Shown: in pieces, positions 1 to 44,239 of the stretch | Layout of the letters: each line of letters begins with the position of its first letter | How positions within the stretch are numbered: the stretch's first letter is position 1 | Assembly (NCBI GenBank): GCA_963848135.1 | Contig: CAWKCK010000017.1 | Coordinates: 682,001-746,000, forward strand | Direction: 5' to 3' | Length of the DNA stretch: 64,000 nucleotides | From: an uncultured delta proteobacterium | GTDB lineage: Bacteria; Desulfobacterota; Desulfobacteria; Desulfobacterales; SG8-13 | The notes under the pieces: generated by a model | Seen by the model: the letters and a program-made list of their open reading frames with translations, nothing else | Database searches by the model: none | What the model was told of the DNA's origin: nothing | Made by a program: the position numbers and the translations under genes

Positions 1-1
1 C

Positions 2-520
2 GTCGCCGCTGGCGGCATATACACCGGCGAGGACATTTACAACTTCCTTAAATTAGGGGCAGCCGGTGTCCAACTGGGCACACGATTTGTTGCCACCTAT
101 GAGTGTGATGCGGATGATGCCTTCAAGCAGGCCTACATCGATGCCAAAAAAGAGGATATGGTCATCATCAAGAGCCCGGTGGGGATGCCCGGCAGAGCGA
201 TTCACAACGCATTTATCGATGGGGTGAATCAAGGCAAGAAAAAACCGTTCAAGTGCCCTTTTCATTGTATTAAAACGTGCGAGGCTCACAAAAGCCCCTA
301 TTGTATCGCCATGGCACTGGGAAATGCGCGCAAGGGAAAATTCAAAAACGGTTTTGCATTTGCCGGAAAAAACGCATACCGGGTCGAAGAGATCGTATCT
401 GTAGCCGACCTGATGAATTCCCTGATAAGAGAGTACTCCCTGACAGCTGTTTCAAGGTTGTCTCTCGGGGATGCCGATGGGGTCCTGGACGATCGTTTCC
501 AGGCCATGGCTGCAAGATAA
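2..520 (+). CDS. Nitronate monooxygenase (2-nitropropane dioxygenase) family protein, 5' partial
   Basis: Frame from base 2 reads VAAGGIYTGEDI...GAAGVQLGTRFVAT.ECDA, then SPVGMPGRAI, CPFHCIKTC and YCIAMAL..A.KG...GFAFAG, typical of this family. Confidence 0.85.
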   Translation, partial: VAAGGIYTGEDIYNFLKLGAAGVQLGTRFVATYECDADDAFKQAYIDAKKEDMVIIKSPVGMPGRAIHNAFIDGVNQGKKKPFKCPFHCIKTCEAHKSPYCIAMALGNARKGKFKNGFAFAGKNAYRVEEIVSVADLMNSLIREYSLTAVSRLSLGDADGVLDDRFQAMAAR

Positions 521-11194: not shown

Positions 11195-11262
11195 AAGTCA
11201 CCCCCCGCAACAACCTCATTTTATGGTTGTTGCCCCGAAACCTTGTGCCACTCTGGATAGCC

Positions 11263-11673: not shown

Positions 11674-11718
11674 CGATTGATCCTCGCATTTTATCGATTT
11701 TTGACATCTACTGGTAAA

Positions 11719-13995: not shown

Positions 13996-14177
13996 TTTTC
14001 AACGTCCTTCAATTTGAGAATTTAGCATGAAAAAGGGACCTCTATCAGAGTGTGCCTTCTTGCCATTTTGTGGAAATTCAGATTCTGAGAATTTTCAATG
14101 GATAGGATCTGGCTATCTCAATATCTAAAGTCGCTCTTGGGGATGTTTAAATACCAGCTTATTTTTTAATCAAAGGA

Positions 14178-14486: not shown

Positions 14487-14810
14487 ACTACTATTAATTA
14501 AATGTGAAATTTTGAAAGGGGAGTGGTGTGGACTGTAGGGAGCTTAGCGAAAAAAGACAGGGCAGCTTCAGGCACAATGTAGGCTAATAACAATTAAATC
14601 GATATGGCAAGAATTGTCAAGATTTTTGGGCGTCGATTAAAGACCGAAACTCCACTTACCTTGCCAATCTCGGAACCATCTAAATTTTCGTGTATCATAA
14701 CGATACAGTCTGGCTATCTCACCAAATCCCAGGGGGTGATAGGTGTGGAACCATAGCAACAGGCGCAAGTTTTAACTACCAGACGATCACAAACATCTCC
14801 CTAATATTTC

Positions 14811-15179
14811 CTAATTTAGACCTGCCTTGCGAAGACCTTCAACAATTTTAGCTCGATCCTTCTGTTTTCGAAAAACAGAACCATAACTATTGATCTCGAA
14901 AAACGGTTCGAGCAGAAGAACTTCCTGCGTTTCACGCTCAGCATCATCTAAGCGACCAGCTTGTGCATATGTGGCAGCGAGAATGATATGATTACCAGCC
15001 CAGTCCTTTTTTCGACTCACACCCTCTTCTAACACCTTGATAGCTTTATCATATAGTCCTCTTAAGTAATAGCCAATCCCAAGAAACATGTAACTACCCG
15101 GCACCTGATTTGGATCGAACCGAAATGCTGTCTCCAAGGAATGGATAGCTTCATCTGTCTTACCCGACCAAAGCATCAC
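14811..15179 (-). pseudogene. TPR C-terminal fragment (typical tail of adenylate-cyclase/TolB-N TPR proteins), 5' end cut by a repeat
   Basis: TPR repeats ending ...GLRKAGL; no RBS or proper start; abuts the repeat at 15199. Confidence 0.6.
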
Positions 15180-15198
15180 TTGACCAACATTCCTGACT

Positions 15199-15277
15199 GA
15201 CTATAGCGGAACGACATCTTCCTTGTACCTGCGGCAACGTCACCAAAGGCGAGCAAGCCTCGGCAATCGCTCAAATT
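15199..15277 (-). repeat. 79-bp partial copy of a MITE-like element (inverted relative to 19106-19184)
   Basis: Reverse complement matches 19106-19184 at 75/79 positions (manual alignment). Confidence 0.85.
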
Positions 15278-15387
15278 TGGTATCAGTATCACAGGTTTAA
15301 TAGATCGTGAAGATTGACGCTTGTAACCTATTGCTAAGTAGACTATACGTGCCATTTTGCGAGTTATTAGATAAATGGGGCAAAACA

Positions 15388-16080
15388 TTGATAGGAACCG
15401 TCGTTAATACATTTAGCATCATCATTGGTAGCCTGATTGGCTTGTTTTTTAAAGGAAGCATACCTGAAAAATACAGCAAGACAATCATGCACGGTGTTGG
15501 TCTTGCTGTCATTCTGATCGGCCTTAAAACAGCGCTTAAAACTGATGCGATCCTGATGGTAATTATTAGTCTCGCAATCGGGAGTTTTTTGGGAGAGTTG
15601 CTTCGAGTCGAAGATAGACTGGATCAACTCGGCAATTGGATAGGAAGACGACTCTCAAAAGATAGCGAGGGGATTTCAAAAGGCTTTGTGAGTGCCAGCC
15701 TGCTCTATTGTGTGGGCGCGATGGCGATTATTGGTTCAATGGAGAGCGGCTTGACGGGAAATCACCAGACACTGTTCGCCAAATCCATCCTTGACGGGAT
15801 TGGATCGGTCCTATTTGCATCAACATTAGGTATTGGCGTTATTTTTTCTGCTGTCTCCGTTTTTATCTATCAAGGTCTTCTTACATTAACCGCATCATCG
15901 ATCAAACCATTTTTATTACCCGAAGTGGTTTCGCAAATGTCTGCCGTTGGGGGACTGCTCATTCTGGCTATTGGCATCGGTCTGCTGGAGATTAAGAAAA
16001 TAAAGATTGGCAACATGCTCCCGGCAGTATTTATTCCTCTTGTTTACCAATTTTTGAAACACTTTTATGAGATACTTTAA
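15388..16080 (+). CDS. DUF554 (YdfK-like) membrane protein
   Basis: GTVVN...IIGSLIG, GFVSASLLYCVGAMAIIGS, AKSILDG, NMLPA; TTG start at 15388. Confidence 0.9.
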   Translation: MIGTVVNTFSIIIGSLIGLFFKGSIPEKYSKTIMHGVGLAVILIGLKTALKTDAILMVIISLAIGSFLGELLRVEDRLDQLGNWIGRRLSKDSEGISKGFVSASLLYCVGAMAIIGSMESGLTGNHQTLFAKSILDGIGSVLFASTLGIGVIFSAVSVFIYQGLLTLTASSIKPFLLPEVVSQMSAVGGLLILAIGIGLLEIKKIKIGNMLPAVFIPLVYQFLKHFYEIL

Positions 16081-29834: not shown

Positions 29835-31598
29835 ATGGCTTACGATGCGGTAAACATGGCAGACTGGCAGATTTCCGAGGCAGCCGAGAAAAACATGCCG
29901 TCACCGGATGAATGGCGCGAGAAACTCGGCCTACAACCGGATGAGATGCTGCCGATGGGGAGACTGGCCAAACTCGATTTTCTCAAAATCATCGACCGTT
30001 TAAATGACAAGCCCGACGGAAAGTACATCGAAGTGACGGCCATTACGCCGACACCCTTGGGCGAAGGAAAAAGTACCACATCCTGCGGCCTGATGGAAGG
30101 CTTGGGAAAACGTGGCGTCAATGTCGGCGGTGCCTTGCGGCAACCTTCCGGCGGACCGACCATGAACGTCAAAGGCACTGCTGCCGGCGGCGGCAACTCG
30201 CTGCTGATTCCCATGACCGAGTTCTCTCTGGGTCTGACCGGTGATATCAATGACATCATGAACGCCCACAACCTGGCCATGGTGGCGATGACCTCCCGGA
30301 TGCAGCACGAGCGCAACTACAACGACGAGCAGCTTCAGCGCCTGACCAAAATGCGGCGGCTCGATATCGACCCCACCCGGGTGGAGATGGGCTGGATCAT
30401 GGATTTTTGTGCCCAGTCTCTCCGGAACATCATCATCGGTATTGGTGGTCGTTTCGACGGCTACACCATGCAGTCCAAATTCGGCATCGCGGTCGGCTCC
30501 GAGTGTATGGCGATTCTGGCCGTTATCCGGGACCTGGCTGACCTTAAAGAACGGCTCAACAACATCACCGTGGCCTTCGACAAGAGCGGCAAACCGGTCA
30601 CGACCGGCGATCTCGAAGTCGGCAACGCCATGACCGCCTTCATGCGCAACACCATCAACCCCACTCTGATGTGCACTGCCGAGTACAACCCGTGCATGGT
30701 CCACGCCGGTCCGTTCGCCAATATCGCCGTCGGGCAGTCCTCGATCATCGCCGACCGTGTTGGTCTCAAACTGTTCGACTACCACGTGACCGAGTCCGGC
30801 TTTGCGGCCGACATCGGCTTCGAAAAGTTCTGGAACGTCAAGTGCCGGTTCAGCGGCCTCAAGCCCCATGTGTCGGTTCTGACATCCACCATCCGCGCCC
30901 TCAAGATGCACGGCGGCGGACCCAAGGTGGTGCCCGGCATTGCCATGGCCGAAGAATACCAGAAGGAAAACCTCGATTTGGTGGAAAAAGGCTGCGAGAA
31001 CATGGTTCATCTGATCAATGTGATCCGCAAAGCCGGCATCAACCCGGTGGTCTGCATCAACCGCTTCTACACCGACACCGATGCCGAGTGTGCTGTCGTG
31101 CGCAAGGCCGCTGAAGCGGCTGGTGCCCGTTGCGCCGAATCGAAGCACTGGGAAAAAGGTGGTGACGGGGCGCTTGAGTTTGCCGATGCGGTTATCGACG
31201 CCTGCAACGAGGAGAACGACTTCCAGTTCCTCTATCCGCTAGAGACGAAACTGCGTGATCGTGTCGCCAAGATCGCCAAGGAAGTCTATGGTGCCGACGG
31301 GGTGTCCTGGTCCCCAGAGGCCGAGGCCAAAGCCAAAATGCTGGAAAGCGATCCCAAGTACGCCGATTTCGCCACCATGATGGTCAAGAGCCACCTGAGC
31401 CTCAGCCACGACCCGACCCTCAAAGGCGTGCCCAAGGGTTGGACCTTACCGATCCGCGACGTGCTGATTTATTCCGGCGCCAAGTTCCTGTGTCCCTGTG
31501 CCGGCACCATCAGCCTGATGCCAGGGACCGGTTCCAATCCGGCTTTCCGACGGATAGACGTGGATGTCAAAACCGGTAAGGTTTCCGGCCTGTTCTAA
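29835..31598 (+). CDS. fhs: Formate--tetrahydrofolate ligase
   Basis: [21 protein letters not shown]...[28 protein letters not shown]; strong RBS GAGGAGG. Confidence 0.97.
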
Positions 31599-31622
31599 CT
31601 CGATGCAACATCCAGACAAACC

Positions 31623-31655
31623 AAAAGCCCGGGGCATTTGCCCCGGGCTTTTTTT
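31623..31655 (+). terminator. Intrinsic terminator of fhs
   Basis: AAAAGCCCGGGGCA-TT-TGCCCCGGGCTTTTTTT. Confidence 0.85.
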
Positions 31656-31876
31656 ATTCCACCTTTTCTAAATAGCCCGTGTAATAATCGGATCCCGGAT
31701 ACGATTCCCTCTTTATAGCGGTTATCAAAAAAACTTTCCGTTATTCGAACGTTTTTTCTAAAACCACTTATACCACCCCTTTTGTATATTGGAATCTATT
31801 TTTGGAAAGCGGTATAATAGCCCGTTTTATCGGTTCACAGGGTTGCAACGGCCAATATGCTTAAGACCACAGAATT

Positions 31877-31984
31877 GTAAGCGTTAACAGGGTGCCGCGG
31901 ATGCAAGGCGTCGGGCGCACAGACGTACTTTTGCACATCAAGTGCCCAACAACAAAGCAGATGCGGTGCCCCGTGAATGCTTAC
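31877..31984. repeat. 108-bp MITE/REP-like element, copy 1
   Basis: GTAAGCGTTAAC...GTGAATGCTTAC terminal IR; colinear with 39493-39600 (88/108 identical by manual alignment). Confidence 0.8.
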
Positions 31985-31993
31985 GGCCCGTCT

Positions 31994-33274
31994 TCATCGT
32001 TCGTCAAGAGCTATGTAATCCGTTTTTTTCTGACCGGTGTATATCTGCCGCGGGCGGCAAAGCTTCCATTCGGGATCGTCCATGCTCTCCTTCCACTGGG
32101 CAATCCAGCCGGGCAGGCGGCCGATGGCAAACATGACCGTAAACATACTCGTGGGAATCCCCATGGCCCGGAGCACGATTCCGCTGTAAAAATCGACGTT
32201 CGGATAGAGGTCGTGGTCGATGAAGTATTCATCCTTCAATGCCACCTCTTCCAGTTCCATGGCGATGTCCATCAGTGGATCACTCAGGTTGAGTTTGTCG
32301 AGTATTCGGTGGCACATCTCTTTCATGATCTTGGCTCTTGGATCGAAAGTTTTATAGACCCTGTGTCCAAATCCCATGAGCCGGAAGGGGTCGTTTTTGT
32401 CTCTGGCCCTTTCGATGAAGGGTTTGATCTCTCCGCCGTTGTTTTTAATATTGGTCAACATCTCGACCACCGCCTGGTTGGCACCACCGTGCAGCGGTCC
32501 CCAGAGAGCGGCAATGCCGGCTGAAATGGCAGCATAAAGATTAACGCGCCCACTGCCCACGATACGCACCGCTGCAGTGGAGCAATTCTGTTCATGGTCG
32601 GCATGCAAAATCCAGAAAACGTTCAGGGCTTCGACCAATTCATCATCGAGCCGGTATGGTTTAACCGGCGTATCGAACATCATGTTGAGAAAATTGGCAC
32701 AATACGTCAGGTCCGGACGCGGATAAACCACCTTATGCCCCCGGGAAATTTTATAAGATATGGCGGCCATGGTGCGGAGCTTGGAAAGCAGCCGTGTCAT
32801 GGTAATGTTGATCTCTTCCTCGGTGCTCTGCAATTCGGGATAAAAACTCCTCAGGGCATTGACCATCGATGACAGAATCCCCATGGGGTGCGAAGCGCGC
32901 GGATATTTTTCATAAAAGACACGCATGTCCTCGTGCACGAGTGAGTTATCGTTCAATAACACCGAAAACCGATTGAGTTGGGTCCGATTGGGGAGATGAC
33001 CGTTGATCAGCAGATAAGCGGTTTCAATAAAAGTGGAACGCTCTGCCAACTGCTCTACCGGTATGCCACGGTATCGCAGAATCCCCTTTTCACCATCCAT
33101 GAAGGTGATTTCACTGTAACAACTGCCGGTGTTGGCATAGCCGTAGTCGAGGGCGATCAAGCCGCTGTCCCTGCGCAGCGTCGAAATGTCGATGGCCTTT
33201 TCACCTTCGGTCCCGACCACCACCGGTAGTTCATAGGTTTTGTTTCCGTGTATGATTTTGACGGTTTCACTCAT
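31994..33274 (-). CDS. gltA: Citrate synthase (type I/II, Si)
   Basis: GILRYRG, HPMG, ILHADHEQNCST, GPLHGGAN, LMGFGHRVYK..DPRA, YPNVDFYSG; start MSETV at 33274. Confidence 0.96.
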   Translation of the reverse strand: MSETVKIIHGNKTYELPVVVGTEGEKAIDISTLRRDSGLIALDYGYANTGSCYSEITFMDGEKGILRYRGIPVEQLAERSTFIETAYLLINGHLPNRTQLNRFSVLLNDNSLVHEDMRVFYEKYPRASHPMGILSSMVNALRSFYPELQSTEEEINITMTRLLSKLRTMAAISYKISRGHKVVYPRPDLTYCANFLNMMFDTPVKPYRLDDELVEALNVFWILHADHEQNCSTAAVRIVGSGRVNLYAAISAGIAALWGPLHGGANQAVVEMLTNIKNNGGEIKPFIERARDKNDPFRLMGFGHRVYKTFDPRAKIMKEMCHRILDKLNLSDPLMDIAMELEEVALKDEYFIDHDLYPNVDFYSGIVLRAMGIPTSMFTVMFAIGRLPGWIAQWKESMDDPEWKLCRPRQIYTGQKKTDYIALDER

Positions 33275-33680
33275 ACAAATCTCCCGTTTCCCGTTGATTC
33301 TTGAAATCAGTTTAACGTTGAGGTCCCCGAAGCGCCATAAGCTTGTACTTATTGCTGCATTCGACGGAAATATCAAGCATCTTTTGCGTGCATCCTTCTC
33401 TTCCTTTTCTGAACGACTGGCACTGACCGGCACTGGCTGCACACACCACACGGTTATATCTCGCTGGTAAAAAAGAGTGGAGATGCCGCGGTTACCTGTT
33501 ATCCAATATCTGCCATTTCTGAATCAGACAGATCCTTATTAAAACCGTGACACCGTTGATATTGAGTCAATGCCCGATATATTATTATGAAATGTCGGAA
33601 TAGGCCCGAATGCAACGGTTTATTTACAGACGACTCCGTCTGTATTAAGATGTAGAAAAAACTCCGGATTGGAGGTGGAC

Positions 33681-34487
33681 ATGTCCTTCAAGAAAAATCT
33701 TCTAAAGAAAATCGAGATCGACAGCCTGGTCGCCAAAGTGATGGCATCCGTCAGGCCGCTGGAAAGCGGCCGCAAGGTGGACAAGGAAGCCATGCGCACT
33801 CTGCTCGAAATGGCCGGCTACACCCTTCGCAAGGAAAGGGATCTCGACCTCTACCTGGAGGATGCGGCCGCAACGAAGGGCAATATCCTGGTCCTTGACA
33901 ATGACCTGACCATTTACGACACCACGGTCGAGGACGTGGTCATACGCAAAAGCCCCTACCTGAAGGATATGATCAGCGTTCGAAACATCATCAAGATATT
34001 GAACGACAAGGACGTGGTTGTCAGCAAAAAGGAATCCTCGGTCAGGCATGTCCAGCAGGCCTGTATTGCAACACTCGACCTTTCGTACGATTCATCCGCG
34101 ATTGCCGATATCGCGATCGATGGCGTGGCGTCCCTGGAAAGCCGTTACGCTGACGGTGTGATCGAGGTTGTCGATATGTTCGCTGTGCTGCTTGGTTATA
34201 AACCGCCACCCAAGATTTTTTCACTTCGCCCGCATCACGTCAGGGGAGCCCTGGAAGAAAAAGAAAACGGAGAACTGTTATTCGGTCCGGTTGCCATGTA
34301 CAGCCCGGAGAGCAATACCATGAAAGTCATCAATACGCCCATCAGCTCAAACGACAAAGCAAAAATGCAATATTATAAAAATGTCGCATCCGATGAAGAA
34401 AAAGCCCCCATCAGCGGTGAAGCCGCCTTTAAGTTTCTGAAAGAAGCTGTTTTGGAGACAGCACCGATTCTATCTGCCGGCGCTTAA
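33681..34487 (+). CDS. Hypothetical protein
   Basis: RBS GGAGG before ATG 33681; about 268-aa ORF with coding-like codon use. Confidence 0.75.
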   Translation: MSFKKNLLKKIEIDSLVAKVMASVRPLESGRKVDKEAMRTLLEMAGYTLRKERDLDLYLEDAAATKGNILVLDNDLTIYDTTVEDVVIRKSPYLKDMISVRNIIKILNDKDVVVSKKESSVRHVQQACIATLDLSYDSSAIADIAIDGVASLESRYADGVIEVVDMFAVLLGYKPPPKIFSLRPHHVRGALEEKENGELLFGPVAMYSPESNTMKVINTPISSNDKAKMQYYKNVASDEEKAPISGEAAFKFLKEAVLETAPILSAGA

Positions 34488-34809
34488 GCCCTCTCCACCA
34501 TACCCCCGGTTTTTCCGCGGCCATGAGCCCTAATGGGAGGCCCTCGGATTGCCCATTCTCCGCCTGCACATTACAGAAGTTCATCACTCCTCAATACATT
34601 CTGCCAGTGCCCGTTTCCATAGCTGGTCCCCCTTTCTCCGCTACCATCAATTTAATAACGAAAACACCGCCCAGCGGGCCAAAGATTCCTGGGATTTTGA
34701 ACTTGATTTAACACCGCTTATAGAGTAAAGAGTCTAACTTGGCCGATCCTAAACCAGCCAAACGAACCCACCGCCGCTTGACGGTGGGTTCGCTATAGGG
34801 AATGGATGT

Positions 34810-34841
34810 TAGCCCGGATATTTCATGAAATATCCGGGCTA
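34810..34841. promoter_or_regulatory. Perfect 32-bp palindrome in the leader of the CBS-SLC13 operon (attenuator or operator)
   Basis: TAGCCCGGATATTTCATGAAATATCCGGGCTA is self-complementary, followed by TTT and about 20 nt later by the RBS AAGGAGG. Confidence 0.6.
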
Positions 34842-34873
34842 TTTGGGGAACATATCTATAAAGGAGGTAATAA

Positions 34874-35440
34874 TTGAAACGATTCCGAGTGAAAGACCTG
34901 ATGGTGCCGCGGGATGAATATGCGATCATCAGAGAGAGTGCCTCGATTTTCGAGGCAGTTAAGGCTCTCGAAGCGGCCCAGCAGGATTTCGATCAAACGC
35001 GCTACCGGCATCGAGCCGTTCTGGTAGAGGACGAGAACAGGCGCATCGTCGGAAAATTGGGACAGCACGACATCTTACGAGCCCTGGAACCCGGCTACGA
35101 TGATATCAAATCGAAAAGCTCGGCCGTCGCCCACCTGGGGTTCAGCAAACGTTTTATCGAGTCGATGATCGAAAACTACCGGCTCTTTGATAAACCCTTG
35201 GAAAAAATCTGCGAAAAAGCGGGTCAGCAAAATGTACGTAAATACATGCACGTGCCCTCTGAAGGCGAATTTATCGAGGAGGAGGCATCTCTCGATCTGG
35301 CGATTCATCTTCTGGTGCTCGGCCACCACCAGTCATTGCTGGTGACCAGGGGAGAGGAAATCATCGGCATTCTCAGATTGACTGACGTGTTTGCCGCCAT
35401 TTTCCATTCCATGGAAGAATGTTTTGCCAACCAGAAATGA
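34874..35440 (+). CDS. CBS-domain protein
   Basis: VKDLMVP..EY..I, VLV.DE...IVGKL.Q.D.L..LEP.Y, GILRLTDVF; TTG start with AAGGAGG. Confidence 0.88.
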   Translation: MKRFRVKDLMVPRDEYAIIRESASIFEAVKALEAAQQDFDQTRYRHRAVLVEDENRRIVGKLGQHDILRALEPGYDDIKSKSSAVAHLGFSKRFIESMIENYRLFDKPLEKICEKAGQQNVRKYMHVPSEGEFIEEEASLDLAIHLLVLGHHQSLLVTRGEEIIGILRLTDVFAAIFHSMEECFANQK

Positions 35441-35495
35441 CTATTGAAACGGGCTGATGTTATCGAAAAAATGGTCAAATGTAAGGAGGAAGTGA

Positions 35496-36977
35496 ATGGC
35501 TACCGATGCTGTAGTGGGCGATCAACGTACGGCGATTAACTGGCGTAAAATCATCTTTTTGTCCGTCGGTATTTTACTCTTTTCCATAGTTTACCTGGCA
35601 CCGCCCTGGCCGGATGCTGTTGATCCCATGGGTGAGCATTTTCCCTTAAGCCGTGAGGCAAAGGGCGCACTGGCGATCTTTCTTCTGGCCGGCACCTGGT
35701 GGGTGTTCGAAGTCGTGCCCATCGGCGTGACAAGCCTGGCGATTGGGGTTCTTCAGGCTCTGTTTCTGATCCGTCCGGCCAAGGTTGCTTTTAAAGACTT
35801 TATGGATCCCTCGGTGATGTTCATTTTTGCCTCGATTATGATCGGTCTGGTCTTTACCAAAGTCGGATTGACCAAACGCTTGGCATATAAGATGCTGGCG
35901 ATTGTTGGTGAAAAAACAAGTATGATCTACCTAGGGGCTTTCGTTGTTACCTCCGCCCTTACCCATATTATGGCTCATACGGCGGTGGCAGCCACCATTT
36001 ACCCACTATTGATTTCGATCTATGCTTTGTATGGTGAAGGAGATAAGCAAACCAAGTTCGGCAAGGGATTATTTATCGGTATGGCCTATGTCGCCGGTGC
36101 CGGCAGCATCGTGACCCTGCTGGGAGCGGCCCGGGGTGCCGTTGCACTGGGTTTTTATACAGATATCATGAATCAAAATGTCAGCTTTTTTCAGTTAAGC
36201 TATTACATGTTTCCTGTTGGCTGGCTGATGACGTTTCTCCTATGGGGTTTTTTTATGATTTTCTTGAAGCCGGAAAAAGACCGTATCCCCGGACTCAGGG
36301 AAAAAGCCAAACAACTGAATTCGGAACTCGGCCCCATCACACGTAAGGAAATCACTGCATCAGTCATCGTCTTCGGCTGTATTCTGGTGATGTCCCTGAG
36401 GTCCTTCATTCCGGTCCTGAAACCGGTCGATAAAACCGCCATTATTCTAATATCGACAATCATGTTCTTTATCACCGGCATCTTGGACCTTGAGGATCTC
36501 GAAGATATCCCCTGGAACATCATCCTGCTGTTTGCCGGTGCCATGAGTATCGGGTTCTGCCTGTGGGAAACCGGGGCTGCCAAATGGATGGCCGTCAACT
36601 GGCTGACAATGTTCCAAGAGTCCAACTGGTTCGTATTTGTGATGAGCATCGCCTTCTTTGTTATGATGATGACAAATTTCATCATGAACGTGGCCGCGAT
36701 TGCAATTTCGCTTCCGGTGGCGCTGGTCATCGCCCCTTATCTCGGTGTGGCCGCCGAAGTGATCCTGTTTGCTTCCCTAGTGGTCGCCGGTATGCCGTTT
36801 CTGCTGCTCGTGGGTGCAGCGCCGAATGCAATCGCCTACGATTCCAAACAATTTTCAACCGGTGAATTTTTTCTTTACGGCATTCCAGCAAGCATTTTGC
36901 TGATGCTTGTCACCGGATTTGCCGTATATATCTTGTGGCCGTTGATGGGGATGCCCACAACGCTGGGTGCTGGGTAA
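35496..36977 (+). CDS. SLC13/DASS family anion permease
   Basis: WWVFEVVPIGVTSL, GLTKRLA, IPWNIILLFAG, TNFIMNVA, AAPNAIAY; many TM segments. Confidence 0.92.
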   Translation: MATDAVVGDQRTAINWRKIIFLSVGILLFSIVYLAPPWPDAVDPMGEHFPLSREAKGALAIFLLAGTWWVFEVVPIGVTSLAIGVLQALFLIRPAKVAFKDFMDPSVMFIFASIMIGLVFTKVGLTKRLAYKMLAIVGEKTSMIYLGAFVVTSALTHIMAHTAVAATIYPLLISIYALYGEGDKQTKFGKGLFIGMAYVAGAGSIVTLLGAARGAVALGFYTDIMNQNVSFFQLSYYMFPVGWLMTFLLWGFFMIFLKPEKDRIPGLREKAKQLNSELGPITRKEITASVIVFGCILVMSLRSFIPVLKPVDKTAIILISTIMFFITGILDLEDLEDIPWNIILLFAGAMSIGFCLWETGAAKWMAVNWLTMFQESNWFVFVMSIAFFVMMMTNFIMNVAAIAISLPVALVIAPYLGVAAEVILFASLVVAGMPFLLLVGAAPNAIAYDSKQFSTGEFFLYGIPASILLMLVTGFAVYILWPLMGMPTTLGAG

Positions 36978-37050
36978 GTTCTGTCTAGAATCATTGGCAC
37001 AGAGGGGACATATGAGATTTTCATATCTCAACCACAAACAATCATAAAAG

Positions 37051-37095
37051 AAACCGCTCCTGAATCCGGCTTACGGCTGGCTTCAGGAGCAGTTT
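37051..37095 (+). other. Intergenic stem-loop
   Basis: AAAC.GCTCCTGAA...TTCAGGAGC.GTTT. Confidence 0.45.
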
Positions 37096-37151
37096 GTGCA
37101 TCAGCTAACTGCGCACACCGTGATTGTCTACCACATTGCGATGGAGGAAGG

Positions 37152-38573
37152 ATGAAACAACTCGAAAAACTGCGCGATCGAATTATTCAACGGGTTGACG
37201 TCAATTTGAGACGTTTCGATTTTGATGTACCGGGTTTCCTCAAATACTATGTTCCACTGAACAAGATGGTTAAATATTACGCCCTTTACGGCATCACGCC
37301 CCACCACCCCCTACACTATCAATTTAACTATTCGAACCTTGCCGGAAGCAACATTCTGGGACGGTGCAAGGTCGATAATTCGATACTGTATAAATGTGAT
37401 ATCCGTGGTGACGAGCTGAAATCCTGCGGTGATGTCATACACTATGAAGGAACCGACATCCCTCTCGAATATGACGAAACGATTCTGATCAAAGACAGCT
37501 TTCTGATCAAAACCCTGGTCCACAACTGCTCGCACAATCCGGAAAACCCGGAACTGTTCCTGATCAAGAATACAGCCTCAGCGGCCTATGTGAACATCCA
37601 CGGCTCATGGATCGAAGGCTGTTTTCTCAATCCTTTCAGCACGGTTGACTTGACCAGCCTTCACGGCTGCTCTGTGGGAACATTTGCCTACCTTCAGGTC
37701 GGCGAGATTTGGCACAAGCAGATCCCCTCCGGTCAGATTTGGGTCAAGGCCGAAGATCAATTCGATTTCAAATATAACTTTCCCGAAAAGGCGCTGAAAA
37801 AATATATCGACTTCCATCCTGATCGCCGACCCACCGGAATTTTCATCGATTTTCTCGAAAGCCGCAAGGAAGATTTTCAGGACGTCTTCAACGTGGTTCA
37901 CTTTTCAAACCCGGTGTCTGTTCCGAAAAGTGCTTCCCTCAGCCCTTACGCTGTCGTGAAACCCAAGACCCGCATCGCTGATAACGTTCTCATCGCCCAG
38001 CATGCCTACATCGAAAGTTCGGTCCTTGGCAAAGGGGCGAATGCCCAGGAGCACTGTTACATCATCGACTCGAAGCTTAAGGGCAACAATGTGACCGCCC
38101 ACGGGGCTAAACTGATCGACGTCGTGCTTGAAAATAATGTCTTTGTCGGGTTTAATTCATTCCTTCGGGGCACTTTCGAGTTTCCATTGCGGGTTGGAGA
38201 AGGTGTTATCGTCATGCCGCACACCATTATCGATATGCAAGCATCTCTGACGATTCCACCGGGCCATCTGGTCTGGGGGCTGATAAGAAAGCCGAAGGAC
38301 CTGAAAGAGCACAGCATCGCTCTTGAAGACCTGGCCAAGGTGAAGGACAAACTCAAAATCGGCGCTATGGAATTCGTTGGCAACGGCAAAGCTTTCGTCA
38401 ATGCTTTTCAACACCGTATCGACCATATCCTCGAGGCCAACGGGGCTTATTACGACGGTAAAAAGAACAGGGGACATGCCCAGAGAGTCCAGCACATTGC
38501 CTATAACATCATTCAACCGCATCCGCTCGGCGTGAAGAAAGGGGTCTATCCGACCATCGACATTCGATCGTGA
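37152..38573 (+). CDS. Tandem left-handed beta-helix (hexapeptide) protein, two gamma-carbonic-anhydrase-like domains
   Basis: Two LbH repeats. Domain 1 has IRGDE, LVH and NIHG; domain 2 has NAQE, TAHG, VFVGFNS and IPPGHLVWG. Confidence 0.75.
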   Translation: MKQLEKLRDRIIQRVDVNLRRFDFDVPGFLKYYVPLNKMVKYYALYGITPHHPLHYQFNYSNLAGSNILGRCKVDNSILYKCDIRGDELKSCGDVIHYEGTDIPLEYDETILIKDSFLIKTLVHNCSHNPENPELFLIKNTASAAYVNIHGSWIEGCFLNPFSTVDLTSLHGCSVGTFAYLQVGEIWHKQIPSGQIWVKAEDQFDFKYNFPEKALKKYIDFHPDRRPTGIFIDFLESRKEDFQDVFNVVHFSNPVSVPKSASLSPYAVVKPKTRIADNVLIAQHAYIESSVLGKGANAQEHCYIIDSKLKGNNVTAHGAKLIDVVLENNVFVGFNSFLRGTFEFPLRVGEGVIVMPHTIIDMQASLTIPPGHLVWGLIRKPKDLKEHSIALEDLAKVKDKLKIGAMEFVGNGKAFVNAFQHRIDHILEANGAYYDGKKNRGHAQRVQHIAYNIIQPHPLGVKKGVYPTIDIRS

Positions 38574-38625
38574 ATCTGGGGAGCATGCCAATGCCGCCGA
38601 ACCCGATAACCTGGGATCGATCGGG

Positions 38626-39372
38626 TTATTTTTTGAAAAAATTCAGCAAGGCATGCAGGTTGGTCAAGGGATGCGGCGGGCAGCCGGGAATGAACAAATC
38701 CACTGGCAGCAGGCTGTCAAGGCCCGGAGTGATTTCCGGGCTGCCCCTGAAAGGACCGCCGCTGAGCGCACAGCTGCCCACGGCAATGACGACTTTAGGG
38801 GACGGCACGGCTTCGTAAGTTTGAAGCAGTGCCGTTTTCATATTGACGGATATGGGGCCGGTGACGACGATACCGTCTGCGTGGCGCGGTGAGGCCACGA
38901 AATTGATCCCGAACCGGGCCAGATCGAAGAAAGGGGTGGCCAGAACGTTCAAATCCGCTTCACAGGCATTGCAGCCGGCGGCTGATACCTGGCGCAGCTG
39001 TAGAGAACGGCCGAATAACTTCTTAAAGTGCTGCCGGGAATGATCGGCCAGTGAAGGCAGGGAGCCGTCGGTCATTAAATGCTCTTTTTCGGCAACCGAA
39101 AGTTCAAAATTCCGGGTAAAGGAGACGAACCGGCCTTGGGAAATCCGTTCGCACGTGCCGCAGAATACGCAGCGTCCCATATCGATCAGTTTGCGCCCGG
39201 CATCGATCGCATCCTGGGGACAGGCCGCCGCGCATTTGGTGGCCAGTTCACTCGGAGCCTCCTTATGAATTTGCGGTAATCCGCGATAGCGGGCCGGAAG
39301 TTTGATTTCCTTTTTAGGATACGCACTGGTTCGGTATCCCTGTTCAAACCTGTTTTTCAATGTTTTGAGCAT
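38626..39372 (-). CDS. ehrS: Ehr small subunit: ferredoxin (HycF-like) fused to NuoB/HycG-like Fe-S domain
   Basis: YRGLP, CAAACP, CVFCGTC, then GCNACE, ASPRHAD, GSCA, PGCPP. Confidence 0.85.
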   Translation of the reverse strand: MLKTLKNRFEQGYRTSAYPKKEIKLPARYRGLPQIHKEAPSELATKCAAACPQDAIDAGRKLIDMGRCVFCGTCERISQGRFVSFTRNFELSVAEKEHLMTDGSLPSLADHSRQHFKKLFGRSLQLRQVSAAGCNACEADLNVLATPFFDLARFGINFVASPRHADGIVVTGPISVNMKTALLQTYEAVPSPKVVIAVGSCALSGGPFRGSPEITPGLDSLLPVDLFIPGCPPHPLTNLHALLNFFKK

Positions 39373-39492
39373 GGTCGTCTCACGTTTGACGCTCGTCGGG
39401 TTGATGGCCGCTTGGTTGCATCTGACCGCACATACGACAATTTTAACCGTTCATTGCGTTGCAACGTCCGATGTGTTGTAAACCACCTGAAA

Positions 39493-39600
39493 GTAAGCGT
39501 TAACAGTGTACCGCAGATGCAAGACTTCGGGCGCGCAGACATACTTTTGTGCATCAATCGTCCGACAACACAGTAGATGCAGTGCTCTCTGAACGCTTAC
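39493..39600. repeat. 108-bp MITE/REP-like element, copy 2, inside the ehr operon
   Basis: GTAAGCGTTAAC...CTGAACGCTTAC; homologous to 31877-31984. Confidence 0.8.
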
Positions 39601-39606
39601 CGATAA

Positions 39607-41124
39607 TTAGAGATCGAATCCGCAGTATGACAGATTGTAGCTCTTGTTGTTGAGCGGAAAATCTGAAATTCCGGTATCCCGCAAGGACATGGCCAGTCCG
39701 TTCCAGTTATGAAAAGAAGGATCCTTGACCTTGTAACGCAAGATCCCTCCCGCAGTGTCGGTCAACACGCAGTGCGACAATTCTCCGCGCCATGCTTCGT
39801 TGATTGCCACCACAAATGAAGCCGGCGCTAAAGTCGCATCGAAAGCTTCGACACAGGCCGTGTCGATCGGTTCGCTCAGCCAGGACTGAATCATTTCGAT
39901 CGATTGTATCACCTCATCCGCCCGGATCATGGCCCGCGCGTACACGTCACCTGTGGATTTGGCATTCTCGGGGATATACTGCTGCCCAAAGTGCCCGGTG
40001 GGAAAACAGCGCCGAACATCATACGGAAGGCCGCACGCCCTGCCGGCCGGCCCTACCAAGCCCAGTTTTTCCGCCGTCGCCGTACTGACCGCCCCGCAGT
40101 CCTCAAACCGGGACCGGACACTGGAAGTGGCAAACAGCAGGTCGATCACATGTTCGACCTGGGGTTTAAGTTCGTTCAAACGTGCCATCAGCGTGCTGCG
40201 ATCCTCGTCGGTCACAGGGAAGCGGACCCCTCCGGGGCGCACCAGCCCTTTGCCAAAGCGGTTGCCGCACATCCACAGCGTCAGGTTAAGGAAATCACCG
40301 CGCATCCGGCCGAAGTAATTGGCCGGCGGCAAAAAAGCGACATCTCCGCTGAGAGCACCCAGGTCGCCGATGTGGTTGGCAAGCCGTTCCAGTTCCAATG
40401 CAATCAACCGGATGATGTCCGCCCCGGTATCGGGTCGGACCGCAGTCAATGCCTCAACCGCCTGGGCCATGCACAGGCTGTTTCCGATGGCGGTGTCGCC
40501 GGCAATCCCCTCGGCCAAAATTGGCAACCGTTTGGCGTCGGCATCGAGCAATAGTTTTTCAACACCACGATGCTGGTAGCCCAGTTGAATTTCCAGATGC
40601 AGCACGCGCTCTCCGATGCAATTGAACCGGAATTGACCCGGCTCGATAACGCCGGCATGCACCGGGCCGACTGCCACCTCATGGATCTCATCGCCTTCCA
40701 CGGCATAATAATCGTATCCGCCAGGGATGTCTTGGCTGTAATCGTTTCCGAAGACATCCGGTCTGCCGAGGTCGTTGGCGTGATAGCGAACCATCTTCAA
40801 CCAGGGATGTCCCTCGGGTACAATGCCGAACTGTTCGGCAATTTCGCGTTCGAACATGTGGAACGGTTCGCACTGCAACGTCATAGCCGGATAAGCGTCC
40901 GGCGCATCGCATCCGGCAACCAGGAGTAGTTCGGTCCTGAGCACCGCCAGAAGTTTGACCGCAGCGCCGTCCTGGTAGGCGAAATAGTGCACAACTTTGC
41001 CCCCGCCTTCGACGACCGCCAGAGCCTGAGTGCGAAAGTCTTCGAAATCAAAATGCGGGATGCGTTCTCTGTCAATCGCCTGCCCATTTCCGATCTGCAA
41101 AAAACCCGTCTCCATTGGCGTCAC
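39607..41124 (-). CDS. ehrL: Ehr large subunit (HycE/HyfG/NuoCD-like, lacking Ni-binding CxxC motifs)
   Basis: FEREI, VGPVHAGVIEPG.FRF...GE, LGYQHRG.E; AEGIAGD replaces RxCGxC; ends NKSYNLSYCGFDL with no DPCxxC. Confidence 0.88.
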   Translation of the reverse strand: MTPMETGFLQIGNGQAIDRERIPHFDFEDFRTQALAVVEGGGKVVHYFAYQDGAAVKLLAVLRTELLLVAGCDAPDAYPAMTLQCEPFHMFEREIAEQFGIVPEGHPWLKMVRYHANDLGRPDVFGNDYSQDIPGGYDYYAVEGDEIHEVAVGPVHAGVIEPGQFRFNCIGERVLHLEIQLGYQHRGVEKLLLDADAKRLPILAEGIAGDTAIGNSLCMAQAVEALTAVRPDTGADIIRLIALELERLANHIGDLGALSGDVAFLPPANYFGRMRGDFLNLTLWMCGNRFGKGLVRPGGVRFPVTDEDRSTLMARLNELKPQVEHVIDLLFATSSVRSRFEDCGAVSTATAEKLGLVGPAGRACGLPYDVRRCFPTGHFGQQYIPENAKSTGDVYARAMIRADEVIQSIEMIQSWLSEPIDTACVEAFDATLAPASFVVAINEAWRGELSHCVLTDTAGGILRYKVKDPSFHNWNGLAMSLRDTGISDFPLNNKSYNLSYCGFDL

Positions 41125-41205
41125 CTAACTCGGTTCTATCAATAAATTGAATCCAGGCTGTATTCAGGCCCCGTCGAAAATTTATAGTTTGAATGCGCCT
41201 CTATG

Positions 41206-42621
41206 TTACGGCCCGGTAACATTCACTGCGTTGATTATCGTTTGGTACAAGGTGCCCGGCATCCAGAAAAAGAGCACGATAGAGGTCAGGAGCAGTGCGA
41301 ATTGGGGCCAAACCATGTGGGGGATTTCTTTCGCCTGGATTTCGGCCTCGGTGCTGCTGAAAGCGATCTTCATGACATGGTTGGCAAATCCGGCAAAAAT
41401 TACACAGATGCTCAGAATAAACAGTCCCACCCCCCAATAATGTCCGGTGCGAAAAGCGCCGAGGATAATGAAAATTTCACCCAGAAATATCCCGAACGGC
41501 GGCAGGCCGGCTATACCGACAAATCCGCCGAAAAATGCCACAAAGGTTTTGGGCATCAGTTTGGCAAGGTTTCCGGTGCTTTCTATCAAACGACTGCCGT
41601 ATCCAAGGAGAATATTTCCGGAACACAGGAACAGAGCCGATTTTATCAGGCTGTGATGGATCAGGCACAGCACGGCGCCATAGGCCCCTATTCCACCAAT
41701 GCCGGTACCGAAGGCAATGATACCCATGTTTTCGATACTCGAATAGGCCAACAGCCGTTTGTATTCGGTCTGCCTGATGATGAACGTGGCCGCTGCCAGC
41801 ATGGATACCAGGCCGAAGACGATCAGAATGGTGCCGGAGAAATCCCCCAGCCCTGCGGCCTGCATGATTTTATTGGTTTTGAATATCCCCAGGTAAGCAC
41901 AGTTGAGCAGCACACCCGACAAAAGGGCCGATGCCGGACTGGGGGCTTCACTATGCGCATCGGGCAGCCAGGTGTGCATCGGCGCCAGTCCCATCTTGGT
42001 ACCGTAGCCCACCAGAATAAAAACAAAACCGGTTTTGAGCCACAATGGATCGAGGCGTTGGGCCACTTCGGTCAGCGAAGAGAAGGCCACCGGAACATCC
42101 ACCCCGCCCACTTCCATGGAAAAGTCAATTAGAACCGAGCCCAGAAGGGCCAGTGCGATTCCCACCGAGCAGATCAATACATACTTCCAGGTGGCCTCGA
42201 GGGAAGCAGGCGATCGGTGGGTGTATATCAAGGGTGCACTGGCCAGCGTGGTGGCCTCGATGGCGATCCACATGACCATAATGTGGTCCGAGAGGGTGAC
42301 CATTGTCATGGTGGATAAAAAGAGCAGCATCGAGCCAGTGAAAATGTTCTCCGATCGGATATCGGCTTTTTTGAGATAGGCGATCGTATAGATGGAGATC
42401 AGGAAAAACAGCAGTGAAATGACCAGCAACGACAATAATCCCTCGGGTGTCACGGCGAAATAATCTGGAAACAGCGCTGTCGGCCGACGGATCCACAGCG
42501 AAAGTGACAGCAGCAGGTGGATGGCTCCGGTGATCACCAGCAGCGGCCGTCCGAAGGCCCGCGGGAGGAAAAAGGCGATGACACCGGTTAAAAACGGCGT
42601 CATGAATACAAGTTCAACCAT
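41206..42621 (-). CDS. hyfF: Proton-translocating antiporter-like subunit (HyfF/EhrD)
   Basis: WIAIEATTLAS, SLEATWKY, GYGTKMGLAPMHTWLPDAHSEAP, KRLLAYSSIE. Confidence 0.88.
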   Translation of the reverse strand: MVELVFMTPFLTGVIAFFLPRAFGRPLLVITGAIHLLLSLSLWIRRPTALFPDYFAVTPEGLLSLLVISLLFFLISIYTIAYLKKADIRSENIFTGSMLLFLSTMTMVTLSDHIMVMWIAIEATTLASAPLIYTHRSPASLEATWKYVLICSVGIALALLGSVLIDFSMEVGGVDVPVAFSSLTEVAQRLDPLWLKTGFVFILVGYGTKMGLAPMHTWLPDAHSEAPSPASALLSGVLLNCAYLGIFKTNKIMQAAGLGDFSGTILIVFGLVSMLAAATFIIRQTEYKRLLAYSSIENMGIIAFGTGIGGIGAYGAVLCLIHHSLIKSALFLCSGNILLGYGSRLIESTGNLAKLMPKTFVAFFGGFVGIAGLPPFGIFLGEIFIILGAFRTGHYWGVGLFILSICVIFAGFANHVMKIAFSSTEAEIQAKEIPHMVWPQFALLLTSIVLFFWMPGTLYQTIINAVNVTGP

Positions 42622-42632
42622 GAGAAACACAC

Positions 42633-43274
42633 CTATTCCTTTAAGGTTCTGAGCAGTGCCGTGTCCACATCATCGAAGGCCTGTTTGATATTCTGCAGAA
42701 TGACTGCCATTATCATGACCCCGGCCAATACGTCCAGAAGGATGCCGAATTCCACGATATGGCGGGCGCGAACGGAAAAGCTGGTGCCCACCAGATAGAT
42801 GCCGTTCTCCATCACGATATAACCGAGAACCATGGCAATCGCATTGCGACGGGCCATGAGCAGGAACATGCCCGCTGCCAGCAGGGTTATCGCGGTCGGG
42901 AGTAATAACGCGTTGCCGCTGGCCTGGGGTAAATTGAATTTCGGACTGACGAAAGTAGCGGCCACGATGAGGATCAATCCGACCAGAAGAGAGGCATGAT
43001 AGCCAACAATGGGCTCGACCTCCCGACGGATAGCGACTTTTTTAATCGCCAGATAGATGCATAGGGGGATGACGATACCCCGAATCAAAAGGGTAACCAG
43101 CGTAAACACGGTTCCACCGGTGGTCAGGTCATGGCCGATAAACAGCGGCACAATGGACACCGCCACGCCCTGAAAGGCGATAATTTTGATCAATGCCGGC
43201 AACCGACTGGTACCGAACGAGAATAAAACCGACAACAGAACCAAGGCTAATAGTGTATCGACGGAATCGATCAT
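42633..43274 (-). CDS. hyfE: Membrane subunit (HyfE/EhrC)
   Basis: AFQG, RREVEP, GYIVMENG, VEFGILLDV; ATGA overlap with the upstream gene. Confidence 0.85.
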   Translation of the reverse strand: MIDSVDTLLALVLLSVLFSFGTSRLPALIKIIAFQGVAVSIVPLFIGHDLTTGGTVFTLVTLLIRGIVIPLCIYLAIKKVAIRREVEPIVGYHASLLVGLILIVAATFVSPKFNLPQASGNALLLPTAITLLAAGMFLLMARRNAIAMVLGYIVMENGIYLVGTSFSVRARHIVEFGILLDVLAGVMIMAVILQNIKQAFDDVDTALLRTLKE

Positions 43275-44188
43275 CGCATGAACTCCAGGGTAATGACGGT
43301 TGCAAAAAATGCCAGGGCAAAAGATGTCAGGACAAACTGGGGCACCTTGTCCATCCGGTATCGGGCCATGACAGACTCGGTGACGCCGACAGCTGCGTAA
43401 ACCAATGCCAGAATGCAAAAGAACAGGCCGATATCTGCCAGCGTGCTGCCGAGCGTAAACGGGCAGATCAGCAAGCTGACCAATGTCGCATAGAAGAATA
43501 GCTTTAAAAAGGACCCCAACTCGATCAAGGCAAAATCGGGTCCGCTGTGATCCAGCACCATGACTTCATGGATCATCGTCAATTCCAGGTGGGTTGCCGG
43601 GTCATCCACCGGTACCCGTGAATTTTCCGTCAGCAGGATAATAAAAAATGCAATAATCACAAACAACAAGGGCGAACCGGCTGTTTGCCAGAGCAGAAGG
43701 GGCTGACCGCTCGAAAAATAGGCCGCCAGACTCAATTGCCCGGTGAGAATAGTAAACAGGATTAAAATCATGAACAGTGTGGCTTCACAAATAATAGGGA
43801 AATAGGCCTCACGGGCCGCACCCATACCTTCAAAGGGCGAGGCGGTGTCCATAGCGGCGGCAATCGTGAAAAACCGCCCCAGGCCAAACAGGTAAAGCAG
43901 CAGGATGATATCTCCGTTGAAAGAAAATAGCGGTGGTTGGCCGGCAATGGGTAAAAACATCAGTGCCGTGACAGCAGCAGACAGAGAGACCATAGGGCCC
44001 AGTTTGAAAATAAAGGTGGTACTGGTACTGTAAACCGACCCCTTTTTGAACAATTTGATCATCGTAAAATAGTTGATGAGCAACGGCGGCCCTTTTTTGC
44101 CGCCAAAAAACGCCTTGACCTTGAGGATAAGCGCTGAATACAGCGGTGCCAGAAATATCGCCAAGGCCAGAATGATTATGGATCTCAT
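43271..44188 (-). CDS. hyfC: NuoH-like membrane subunit (HyfC/HycD/EhrB)
   Basis: GPP, MDTASPFEGMGAARE, ENSRVPVDDPATHLELTMIHEVMVLDHSGP. Confidence 0.9.
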   Translation of the reverse strand: MRSIIILALAIFLAPLYSALILKVKAFFGGKKGPPLLINYFTMIKLFKKGSVYSTSTTFIFKLGPMVSLSAAVTALMFLPIAGQPPLFSFNGDIILLLYLFGLGRFFTIAAAMDTASPFEGMGAAREAYFPIICEATLFMILILFTILTGQLSLAAYFSSGQPLLLWQTAGSPLLFVIIAFFIILLTENSRVPVDDPATHLELTMIHEVMVLDHSGPDFALIELGSFLKLFFYATLVSLLICPFTLGSTLADIGLFFCILALVYAAVGVTESVMARYRMDKVPQFVLTSFALAFFATVITLEFMR

Positions 44189-44239
44189 TACAATATCCCC
44201 ATCCTTATCATGTATCGCGAGGGCTGCCGCCTCCCCGGG

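Follow-up and report, generated by a model that had tools for sequence, protein, structure and literature searches.

The question raised by this locus is whether two incomplete gamma-carbonic anhydrase (gamma-CA) domains joined in one polypeptide can make up a single active site. The locus belongs to an uncultured delta proteobacterium of the order Desulfobacterales (GenBank assembly GCA_963848135.1, contig CAWKCK010000017.1, positions 682,001 to 746,000 of the forward strand), and the whole stretch of 64,000 nucleotides is referred to below as the window. An open reading frame (ORF) on the forward strand at 37152..38573, starting with ATG, is translated into a protein of 473 amino acids, in which domain 1 appears to retain one face of a gamma-CA site and domain 2 the other. 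Judged from residue pattern, conservation and structure prediction, one composite metal site per chain, of the type known from Cam, the gamma-CA of Methanosarcina thermophila, is probable, while CO2 hydration as the reaction at this site, proposed from the conserved residues, is a tentative assignment somewhat short of an even chance. The gene has the following features.

37143..37147, forward strand: ribosome-binding site GGAGG, read in the sequence 5-9 nt 5' of the ATG
37152..38573, forward strand: whole gene, 473 aa, member of the 3C8V / PF18776 family (3c8v_A match and model superposition)
37281..37778, forward strand: domain 1, residues ~44-209, divergent left-handed beta-helix, 'two-His' side (strand ladder of the model, Hexapep_loop, interface ladder)
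37404..37415, forward strand: R85-G86-D87-E88, putative equivalents of Cam R59, D61 and E62 (conservation; alignment to R-A-D-E of the genome's Cam-type enzyme)
37521..37523, forward strand: H124, putative equivalent of Cam H81 (conservation, transitive alignment, predicted interface)
37599..37601, forward strand: H150, putative equivalent of Cam H122 (conservation, transitive alignment, predicted interface)
37779..37907, forward strand: helical linker, residues 210-252 (model helices 212-218, 230-236 and 239-247)
37908..38282, forward strand: domain 2, residues 253-377, gamma-CA-type beta-helix, 'one-His' side (hhalign and VIA)
38040..38051, forward strand: N297-A-Q299-E300, equivalents of Cam N73, Q75 and D76 (column-for-column alignment, conservation; 300 in the predicted interface)
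38100..38102, forward strand: H317, equivalent of Cam H117 (aligned to A-H-G of the Cam-type profile; conservation; predicted interface)
38283..38570, forward strand: C-terminal helix and tail, residues 378-473, with H425, E428, N430 and G441-H442-A-Q444 (model helix 412-430)

The residues that the initial annotation had read from the translation (R85, G86, D87, E88, H124, A145, H150, N297, Q299, E300, I305, H317 and I322) are all found where it placed them, and its two left-handed beta-helix domains are borne out by a confident structure model with two ladders of short strands, at residues ~44-209 and 253-377. A Pfam search returned only the generic hexapeptide repeat PF00132 (28.6 bits, cut-off 27) and PF18776, Hexapep_loop (44.8 bits, cut-off 31.5; residues 151-173, E 9.5e-12). 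Among the curated NCBIfam models, residues 250-375 match GlmU, LpxD, LpxA, CcmM and CaiE, all far under the cut-offs, and the best acyltransferase score, that of glmU TIGR01173, is 23.6 bits against a cut-off of 366.85. The product is a real hexapeptide protein which the family libraries do not resolve.

The protein matches 3C8V, a 'putative acetyltransferase' of Desulfovibrio desulfuricans G20 (YP_390128.1) solved by structural genomics in 2008, without gaps over residues 1-471 (E 9.2e-150), and the key site residues are identical in the printed alignment. By structural alignment the identity is ~49-50%, and family and architecture are common to both proteins; the residue numbering of 3C8V agrees with that used here, VIA having aligned model 1..473 to chain 1..473. 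A first structure model, built with 31 close sequences, was unusable over residues 1-161, with a predicted local distance difference test score (pLDDT) below 50, and was superseded by a model built with 99 sequences (pLDDT 93.3, predicted template modelling score 0.93). The latter superposes on the four 3C8V chains with template modelling (TM) scores of 0.92-0.96 and a root-mean-square deviation (rmsd) of 1.5-1.7 A, and consists of a ladder at residues ~44-209, a helical linker, a ladder at 253-377, a long helix at 412-430 and a tail. It places the protein in the known 3C8V family, for which the literature search under 3C8V, YP_390128 and PF18776/Hexapep_loop found no paper on function or site. 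A split composite gamma-CA site was not found in print by these searches, nor was a tandem or pseudo-trimer gamma-CA of such type described among the titles listed.

A word-index search detected 2151 relatives (E <= 0.001), which go under the names 'transferase' or 'carbonic anhydrase/acetyltransferase-like', and an exhaustive search of 50%-identity representatives gave 149 matches; the family is compact, since only ~30 of these 149 are full length. A database search for fused family forms of 829-2365 aa found none, which is weak evidence. One database representative of 593 aa (P0122, 52% identical) carries a response-regulator receiver domain fused at the N-terminus of a family member, and this composition hints at phosphorelay control.

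Domain 2 can be placed within the gamma-CA family directly. The genome of the window encodes two canonical gamma-CAs, one of them of the Cam/CcmM type, which matches Cam entries at ~2e-23 and CcmM at E 6.7e-26, and the numbering of R59, D61, E62, N73, Q75, D76, H81, H117 and H122 was fixed on a Cam-numbered PDB chain. With hhalign, the profile of residues 250-440 matched that of the family of this Cam-type enzyme at 99% probability (E 3.6e-18, 139 columns). In this alignment N297 pairs with N73, Q299 with Q75, E300 with D76 and H317 with H117, so that these four residues fall on the N-I-Q-D and A-H-G motifs of the Cam-type enzyme, while E288 takes the position of R59. The earlier reading that domain 2 has Ile at the other two His positions is right for I322, which pairs with H122; at the H81 position it is D306 that aligns, with I305 opposite a gap, and neither residue is His.

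A VIA search with the model returned 3c8v first, followed at ranks 2-46 exclusively by members of the gamma-CA family, namely PaaY, YrdA, Cam, CcmM and complex I subunits (Z 19.4-21.4, rmsd 1.8-3.7 A, 150-169 residues, model range ~247-452), PaaY being the top match apart from 3c8v. This list is filled by matches of domain 2 and reads on that domain, not on domain 1. The C-terminal helix 412-430 falls within the gamma-CA matches, the matched range of the model extending to ~450, and domain 2 together with this helix is a full gamma-CA fold, a left-handed beta-helix followed by an alpha-helix. Residues 5-213 of Cam (1QRG, 1THJ) superpose on it with Z 20.0 and rmsd 2.1 A over 164 residues, and the CcmM chains with Z 18.6-19.4. 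The N-terminal domain of CcmM is of the Cam-type R-x-D-E class; CcmM is, however, a homotrimer fused to RbcS-like repeats, and the two-domain protein scores 20.9 bits with the NCBIfam CcmM model, the cut-off of which is 550.

The position of domain 1 was traced through a rare clade of short relatives (P0225, P0227 and P0229; 349-355 aa, 26-30% identity, each cluster with a single member), in which domain 1 has near-canonical gamma-CA spacings. When metagenomes were scanned for the genomic context of this clade, the 26 matches were weak, at 23-30% identity over domain 2, and as none was clearly a member they were not used. Domain 1 of the short clade aligns with the Cam-type profile colinearly through R-x-D-E, H81 and H122 (E 7e-4, 65 columns), with N or P at the H117 position, and with domain 1 of the main family at E 8e-38. 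By these alignments, therefore, R85, D87 and E88 would correspond to R59, D61 and E62, H124 to H81, position 145 to H117 and H150 to H122. The main family differs from the short clade's spacing by insertions of 18 residues after R-G-D-E and 4 residues after H124. The Ala at the position of the third His, pointed out in the initial annotation, is present in the protein itself but is not a fixed trait, as P (50), H (20), S (8), A (5) and N (3) are counted there among 92 full-length relatives. In an Atlas search with residues 40-215, nothing was returned but the own family and DUF4954 at 0.88, the latter as a lead only.

The conservation of the split residue set was counted in these 92 full-length relatives, 34-95% identical to the protein; the three short-clade sequences were counted apart, and P0164 and P0191 (frameshift-like, low-complexity translations) as well as P0135 and P0141 (truncated) were left out. 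In domain 1, R85 is retained in 91, D87 in 91, E88 in 90, H124 in 91 and H150 in 89 sequences; in domain 2, N297 in 86, Q299 in 87, E300 in 92 and H317 in 90; and in the C-terminal region, H425 in 88, N430 in 86, H442 in 86 and Q444 in 88. All 13 positions are intact in 86 of the 92 relatives and in all three members of the short clade, despite its 26-30% identity; invariance of the site residues across homologues had been named as a check, and the whole pattern does hold in this majority. The six other full-length sequences (P0124, P0131, P0132, P0146, P0148 and P0149) have each lost 3-9 of the 13 positions at once and may be degenerate paralogues. N297, N430 and H442 are lost in all six, and H150 is missing, too, from both sequences without H317. 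Kept in full or lost several at a time, the 13 positions behave as expected of one functional unit extending over both domains and the C-terminal tail, and the conservation of the split pattern exceeds chance. Conservation also extends to the next two rungs of the interface above the His triad, where both clades share T164, D166, Y180 and N335 and the main family has H357 and D361 in addition.

Whether the two sides can meet was examined by folding residues 1-250 and 251-473 as two chains, with Zn as an added ligand. The interface score ipSAE was 0.92 (runs 0.92, 0.90 and 0.93) against 0.01 for the best control, with a contact agreement between runs of at least 91% and a partner pLDDT of at least 90. 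The mark applied to this score is reached by 58 of 80 solved complexes and by 2 of 110 mismatched pairs, counts that are only approximate for the present pair because a custom alignment and a riding ligand were used; the two chains are, moreover, halves of one polypeptide, so that packing is expected regardless.

More informative is the predicted register. The interface ladder of chain 1 comprises residues 67/69, 83/85, 122/124, 146/148/150, 162/164/166, 178-180/182 and 194-200, and that of chain 2 residues 265-268, 283/284/286, 300/301/303, 317/318/320, 334/335/337, 355-357 and 375-377. The best-defined pairs link 164, 178-180 and 196 with 357, contacts which imply a parallel one-to-one register with seven rungs per side. 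The rung of R85 is thereby predicted to lie opposite Q283, that of H124 opposite E300 and that of H150 opposite H317. From the six-residue repeat of the helix, this appears to be the register expected between neighbouring gamma-CA subunits, because H117 shares a hexapeptide with H122, and D76 with H81. No interface residue is listed from the 18-residue insertion of domain 1, which suggests that it is an excursion and not an extra rung.

Taken together, Cam residues R59, D61, E62, N73, Q75, D76, H81, H117 and H122 all have counterparts in the two-domain protein. In the alignments the three His of the Cam type are present but spread over two domains, and the Cam helper set is present and conserved as E88, Q299, N297 and the pair R85 and E300 (E62, Q75, N73 and the R59-D76 pair). 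Cam is a homotrimer with three identical sites, whereas here the residues are split between unlike domains, each of which is without half of the set, and at most one site can form. Domain 1 has no N-x-Q-D motif and has P, H, S or A at the H117 position; domain 2 has E288 at R59, I305/D306 at H81 and I322 at H122. The proposal that each domain kept one face thus agrees with the residues (R85, D87, E88, H124 and H150 on one side; N297, Q299, E300 and H317 on the other). As for one intact site between the domains, the residue set is there and the predicted interface brings 85, 124 and 150 into register with 300 and 317, and the three His may on this basis converge on a metal. Among the differences from Cam are the Glu in place of D76, the insertions of 18 and 4 residues in domain 1, and E84 and N202/Y200, for which no equivalents were identified.

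A natural parallel exists in plant mitochondria. In the passages of PMC8290278 consulted, the single complete site of Arabidopsis complex I is formed by H130 of CA1 with H107 and H135 of CA2, and N99, Q101, D102 and Y207 are contributed by CA1 and R86 by CA2. This bears out in print the assignment, in the initial annotation, of Asn73 and Gln75 to the H117 face. Within the CA1/CA2/CAL2 module, as described there, the full His set occurs at one interface only, and the subunit with one His adds N, Q and D while that with two His adds Arg, which is the division seen between domain 2 and domain 1. The plant module differs in consisting of three separate polypeptides on complex I, with each CA subunit two-faced; here two fused domains with one degenerate face each make up a soluble bacterial protein. 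The likeness suggested earlier thus holds as an analogy and not beyond it.

The gene follows genes for a CBS-domain protein and an anion symporter, and an operon on the opposite strand lies downstream.

34874..35440, forward strand: gene for a CBS-domain protein (PF00571), found with the DASS gene in related loci
35496..36977, forward strand: gene for a DASS-family anion symporter, directly upstream (PF00939, E 2.2e-41; TIGR00785)
38626-46198, reverse strand: six-gene complex-I/hydrogenase-4-like operon, downstream and convergent

The context was followed in 80 related loci from different species genomes, 577 relatives having been confirmed. A DASS gene lies directly upstream on the same strand in 24 of the 67 loci with enough upstream DNA, a SulP-STAS gene is divergent upstream in 5 of the 67 and a TauE gene in 3. 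Downstream, a CBS-DASS pair occurs in 3 of 60 loci, a Cache-domain (dCache) histidine kinase gene directly follows in 10 and a LUD-domain gene in 4. Counting any adjacent anion carrier (DASS, SulP or TauE) gives 27 of the 54 loci with full flanks, and the DASS symporter is the likely functional partner of the two-domain protein. The gene cluster of the window is the DASS-type sulfate-transporter cluster which PMC11887813, in its main text, describes from 26 sulfate reducers, with two-component systems, CBS proteins and Cache-domain kinases, and the carriers of which are regarded there as sulfate importers. DASS and SulP proteins are named as candidate sulfate carriers in sections of PMC5840216, where long SulP proteins of sulfate reducers are also found to cluster with the bicarbonate carrier BicA. 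The main text of PMC11887813 contains no mention of 'transferase', 'hexapeptide' or 'carbonic anhydrase'; as the gene is nevertheless present in many such clusters, it is, as far as that text goes, a candidate missing component of sulfate uptake or of its pH/bicarbonate balance. The literature on gamma-CA with sulfate transporter and Desulfo, and on Ehr with carbonic anhydrase, yielded nothing relevant.

With regard to distribution, 301 genomes sampled evenly across the phylum were searched, and 24 of them, from 17 of the 199 genera, each gave a single match to the family. dsrA is present in 159 of the 301 genomes, and a comparison of the lists showed all 24 carriers of the family to be dsrA-positive; this co-occurrence is an association and not a test, related genomes being non-independent.

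On these grounds the protein would be located in the cytoplasm and form, within one chain, a pseudo-heterodimer of two gamma-CA-type left-handed beta-helices, with one composite site serving CO2/bicarbonate chemistry beside anion carriers, an interpretation which as a whole stands at about an even chance. Domain 1 would give the 'two-His' side (R85, D87, E88, H124 and H150), and domain 2 with the C-terminal helix and tail the 'one-His' side (N297, Q299, E300 and H317, probably with H425, N430, H442 and Q444). In the model the packing of the two sides is parallel and in register, like that between adjacent subunits of a gamma-CA trimer, which would leave one metal site per chain in place of the three of a homotrimer. 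A single Fe2+ or Zn2+ would be held by H124, H150 and H317, with R85 and E300 acting as an inter-domain clamp, and the metal-bound hydroxide, aided by E88 and Q299/N297, might interconvert CO2 and bicarbonate or carry out a closely similar hydration. Working beside the DASS, SulP or TauE carriers of sulfate reducers, the enzyme could supply or remove bicarbonate and protons during anion uptake, or alternatively serve the balance of cytoplasmic pH and bicarbonate.

Several observations weigh against this interpretation. The mapping of domain 1 onto Cam is transitive, its weakest link being a profile of three sequences at E 7e-4, and may be correspondingly insecure; compared directly, domain 1 of the main family has no significant similarity to the Cam-type profile (E 0.028 over 29 columns), although R-G-D-E falls exactly on R-A-D-E. 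Between domain 1 and domain 2 the similarity (E 0.017, 16 columns) is not significant, so that an internal duplication is not demonstrated by sequence. The predicted interface, apart from its approximate calibration, may amount to recall of the solved homologue 3C8V and would then show likeness to it, and N297 and Q299 are not among its residues. E300 is Glu in 92 of 92 relatives and never the canonical Asp of gamma-CAs. The invariant N335, H357 and D361 hint at a function beyond plain CO2 hydration, and the loss of the C-terminal H/N/H/Q motif together with N297/Q299 also speaks against a plain CA. The genome already has its two canonical gamma-CA genes, and in about half of the loci with full flanks no transporter is adjacent. 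For many gamma-CA-like proteins that carry all three His, no CA activity is known. Finally, a forced longer alignment of domain 1, of low confidence, pairs H150 with Cam H117 and E155 with H122. It was judged less likely and rejected because E155 is lost in the short clade (D, D and I), because the short clade fits the other pairing colinearly, and because 20 of the 92 relatives have a His exactly five residues before H150.

Other explanations draw on the same evidence. Sulfate binds to the metal of Cam in crystals, and the composite site might bind an anion such as sulfate, sulfite, thiosulfate or bicarbonate without turnover, and the protein might act as a cytoplasmic sensor or regulator of the neighbouring carriers or of the two-component system. 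Such a role would suit a gene placed within a cluster that encodes DASS sulfate transporters, CBS proteins and Cache-domain kinases (PMC11887813, main text), with a dCache kinase directly downstream in 10 of 60 loci, a receiver-domain fusion in P0122 and a sampled distribution confined to dsrA-positive genomes. It is nonetheless considered rather unlikely, given that the full Cam catalytic set (the equivalents of E62, Q75 and N73) is retained beyond the ligands, that E88 would be needless for a pure binder, and that the typical 473-aa form has no DNA-binding or signalling domain in Pfam. The neighbourhood of three unrelated families of anion carriers (DASS, SulP and TauE) and the restriction of the family to dsrA-positive genomes would fit a metalloenzyme whose gamma-CA-derived centre does not act on CO2 but on, for instance, a sulfur oxyanion or some different small carbonyl or thiocarbonyl compound of sulfate respiration. 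The conserved T164, D166, Y180, N335, H357 and D361 along the interface above the His triad, the joint loss of the C-terminal H/N/H/Q motif and N297/Q299, and the uniform Glu at position 300 in place of the Asp of gamma-CAs are in line with this proposal, but the conserved residues may merely stabilise the domain interface and no tool result points to a candidate reaction, and it is regarded as unlikely.

The names given to the family suggest instead an acyl- or acetyltransferase of the hexapeptide class, or a thioesterase like PaaY, with the active site at the domain interface and H317 as general base. This is the sense of the 3C8V title 'putative acetyltransferase' and of the source names 'transferase', and it finds some echo in the weak matches of residues 255-361 to the GlmU, LpxD and LpxA models, in the GlmU chains that come next after 3c8v in Foldseek, and in the place of PaaY at the top of the VIA list. 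The GlmU-type score, however, is 23.6 against 366.85 bits, the Foldseek TM-score to GlmU is 0.16-0.21, the 45 best non-self VIA entries all belong to the gamma-CA family, the residues that are conserved make up the gamma-CA set, divided between the two domains, and genes for acyl carriers or related to CoA do not recur among the neighbours; transferase or thioesterase activity is therefore held to be very unlikely. By comparison with plant complex I, the protein might also have no catalytic role and serve as an accessory or assembly subunit of the complex-I-like (Ehr-type) membrane complex encoded next to it. The six-gene operon is indeed adjacent in 16 of 80 loci and in two arrangements, convergent as in the window or, in a distant lineage, following the gene in the same direction. 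Yet 64 of the 80 loci have no such operon within the available flanks, several of which are short, 12 of the 16 are close relatives with shared synteny (79-95% identity), and the strong conservation of catalytic-type residues favours chemistry, which makes a purely structural role highly improbable.

If the interpretation as a composite gamma-CA-type enzyme is true, more than 2,000 database proteins (2151 at E <= 0.001) would be one-site gamma-CA derivatives, and the family would provide bacteria's natural counterpart, on a single chain, of the asymmetric gamma-CA module in plant complex I, as well as a clean case of a symmetric interface enzyme subfunctionalised after duplication. The existing crystal structure of a homologue with 49-50% identity makes the claim of a composite site quickly checkable. 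The known SulP-CA fusions involve beta-class CAs. Like these fusions and the BicA-type SulP proteins, the present system has a CA-like protein encoded beside carriers of the SulP or DASS type; it differs in that the CA-like protein derives from the gamma class and is not fused to the carrier, and in that the carriers are regarded as sulfate importers (PMC11887813, main text). A bolder extension, which must be called rather unlikely in its entirety, is that a duplicated, fused and subfunctionalised gamma-CA ancestor gave rise to a one-site metalloenzyme, on a single chain, that takes part, so far unrecognised, in anion uptake by sulfate reducers. This enzyme may form a transport metabolon with DASS, SulP or TauE carriers and, in some lineages, with the Ehr module, and may act on a sulfur oxyanion or couple the supply of bicarbonate and protons to sulfate import, possibly under phosphorelay control.

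The 174-nt spacer between the DASS gene and the ORF contains a 9-bp inverted repeat (GCTCCTGAA ... TTCAGGAGC) at 37047-37090, with no T run after it, which from its sequence could be an attenuator or an RNA-processing hairpin. A scan of 34400-38750 for promoters and terminators gave 6 and 5 sites, compared with 4.4 and 4.7 in shuffled sequences, and is uninformative.

In the downstream operon, the NuoD/HycE-like subunit of 505 aa has no CxxC motif and scores below every NuoD cut-off, and for these reasons the complex looks like one of the Ehr type without a NiFe site, not like a hydrogenase. Two ORFs of the operon, at 42633-43418 and 43271-44188 on the reverse strand, overlap by 148 nt, and the true start of the downstream gene, which resembles a hydrogenase-4 membrane subunit, is probably later than listed. 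The second arrangement of the same neighbours is seen in locus L111 (G301:C331:8000-27000, reverse strand; same genome as L056), where a two-domain gene of a distant lineage, 59% identical, precedes an entire Ehr-like operon in the same direction and has a divergent SulP gene on its own upstream side.

Just upstream of the transporter cluster, at 29835-33451, are genes for formate-tetrahydrofolate ligase (forward strand) and citrate synthase (reverse strand), shared only by the closest relatives (L001 and L002). Further upstream, the G+C content falls to 0.41-0.44 at 4001-16000, compared with 0.47-0.56 in the rest of the window, and this region may be a foreign or specialised island.

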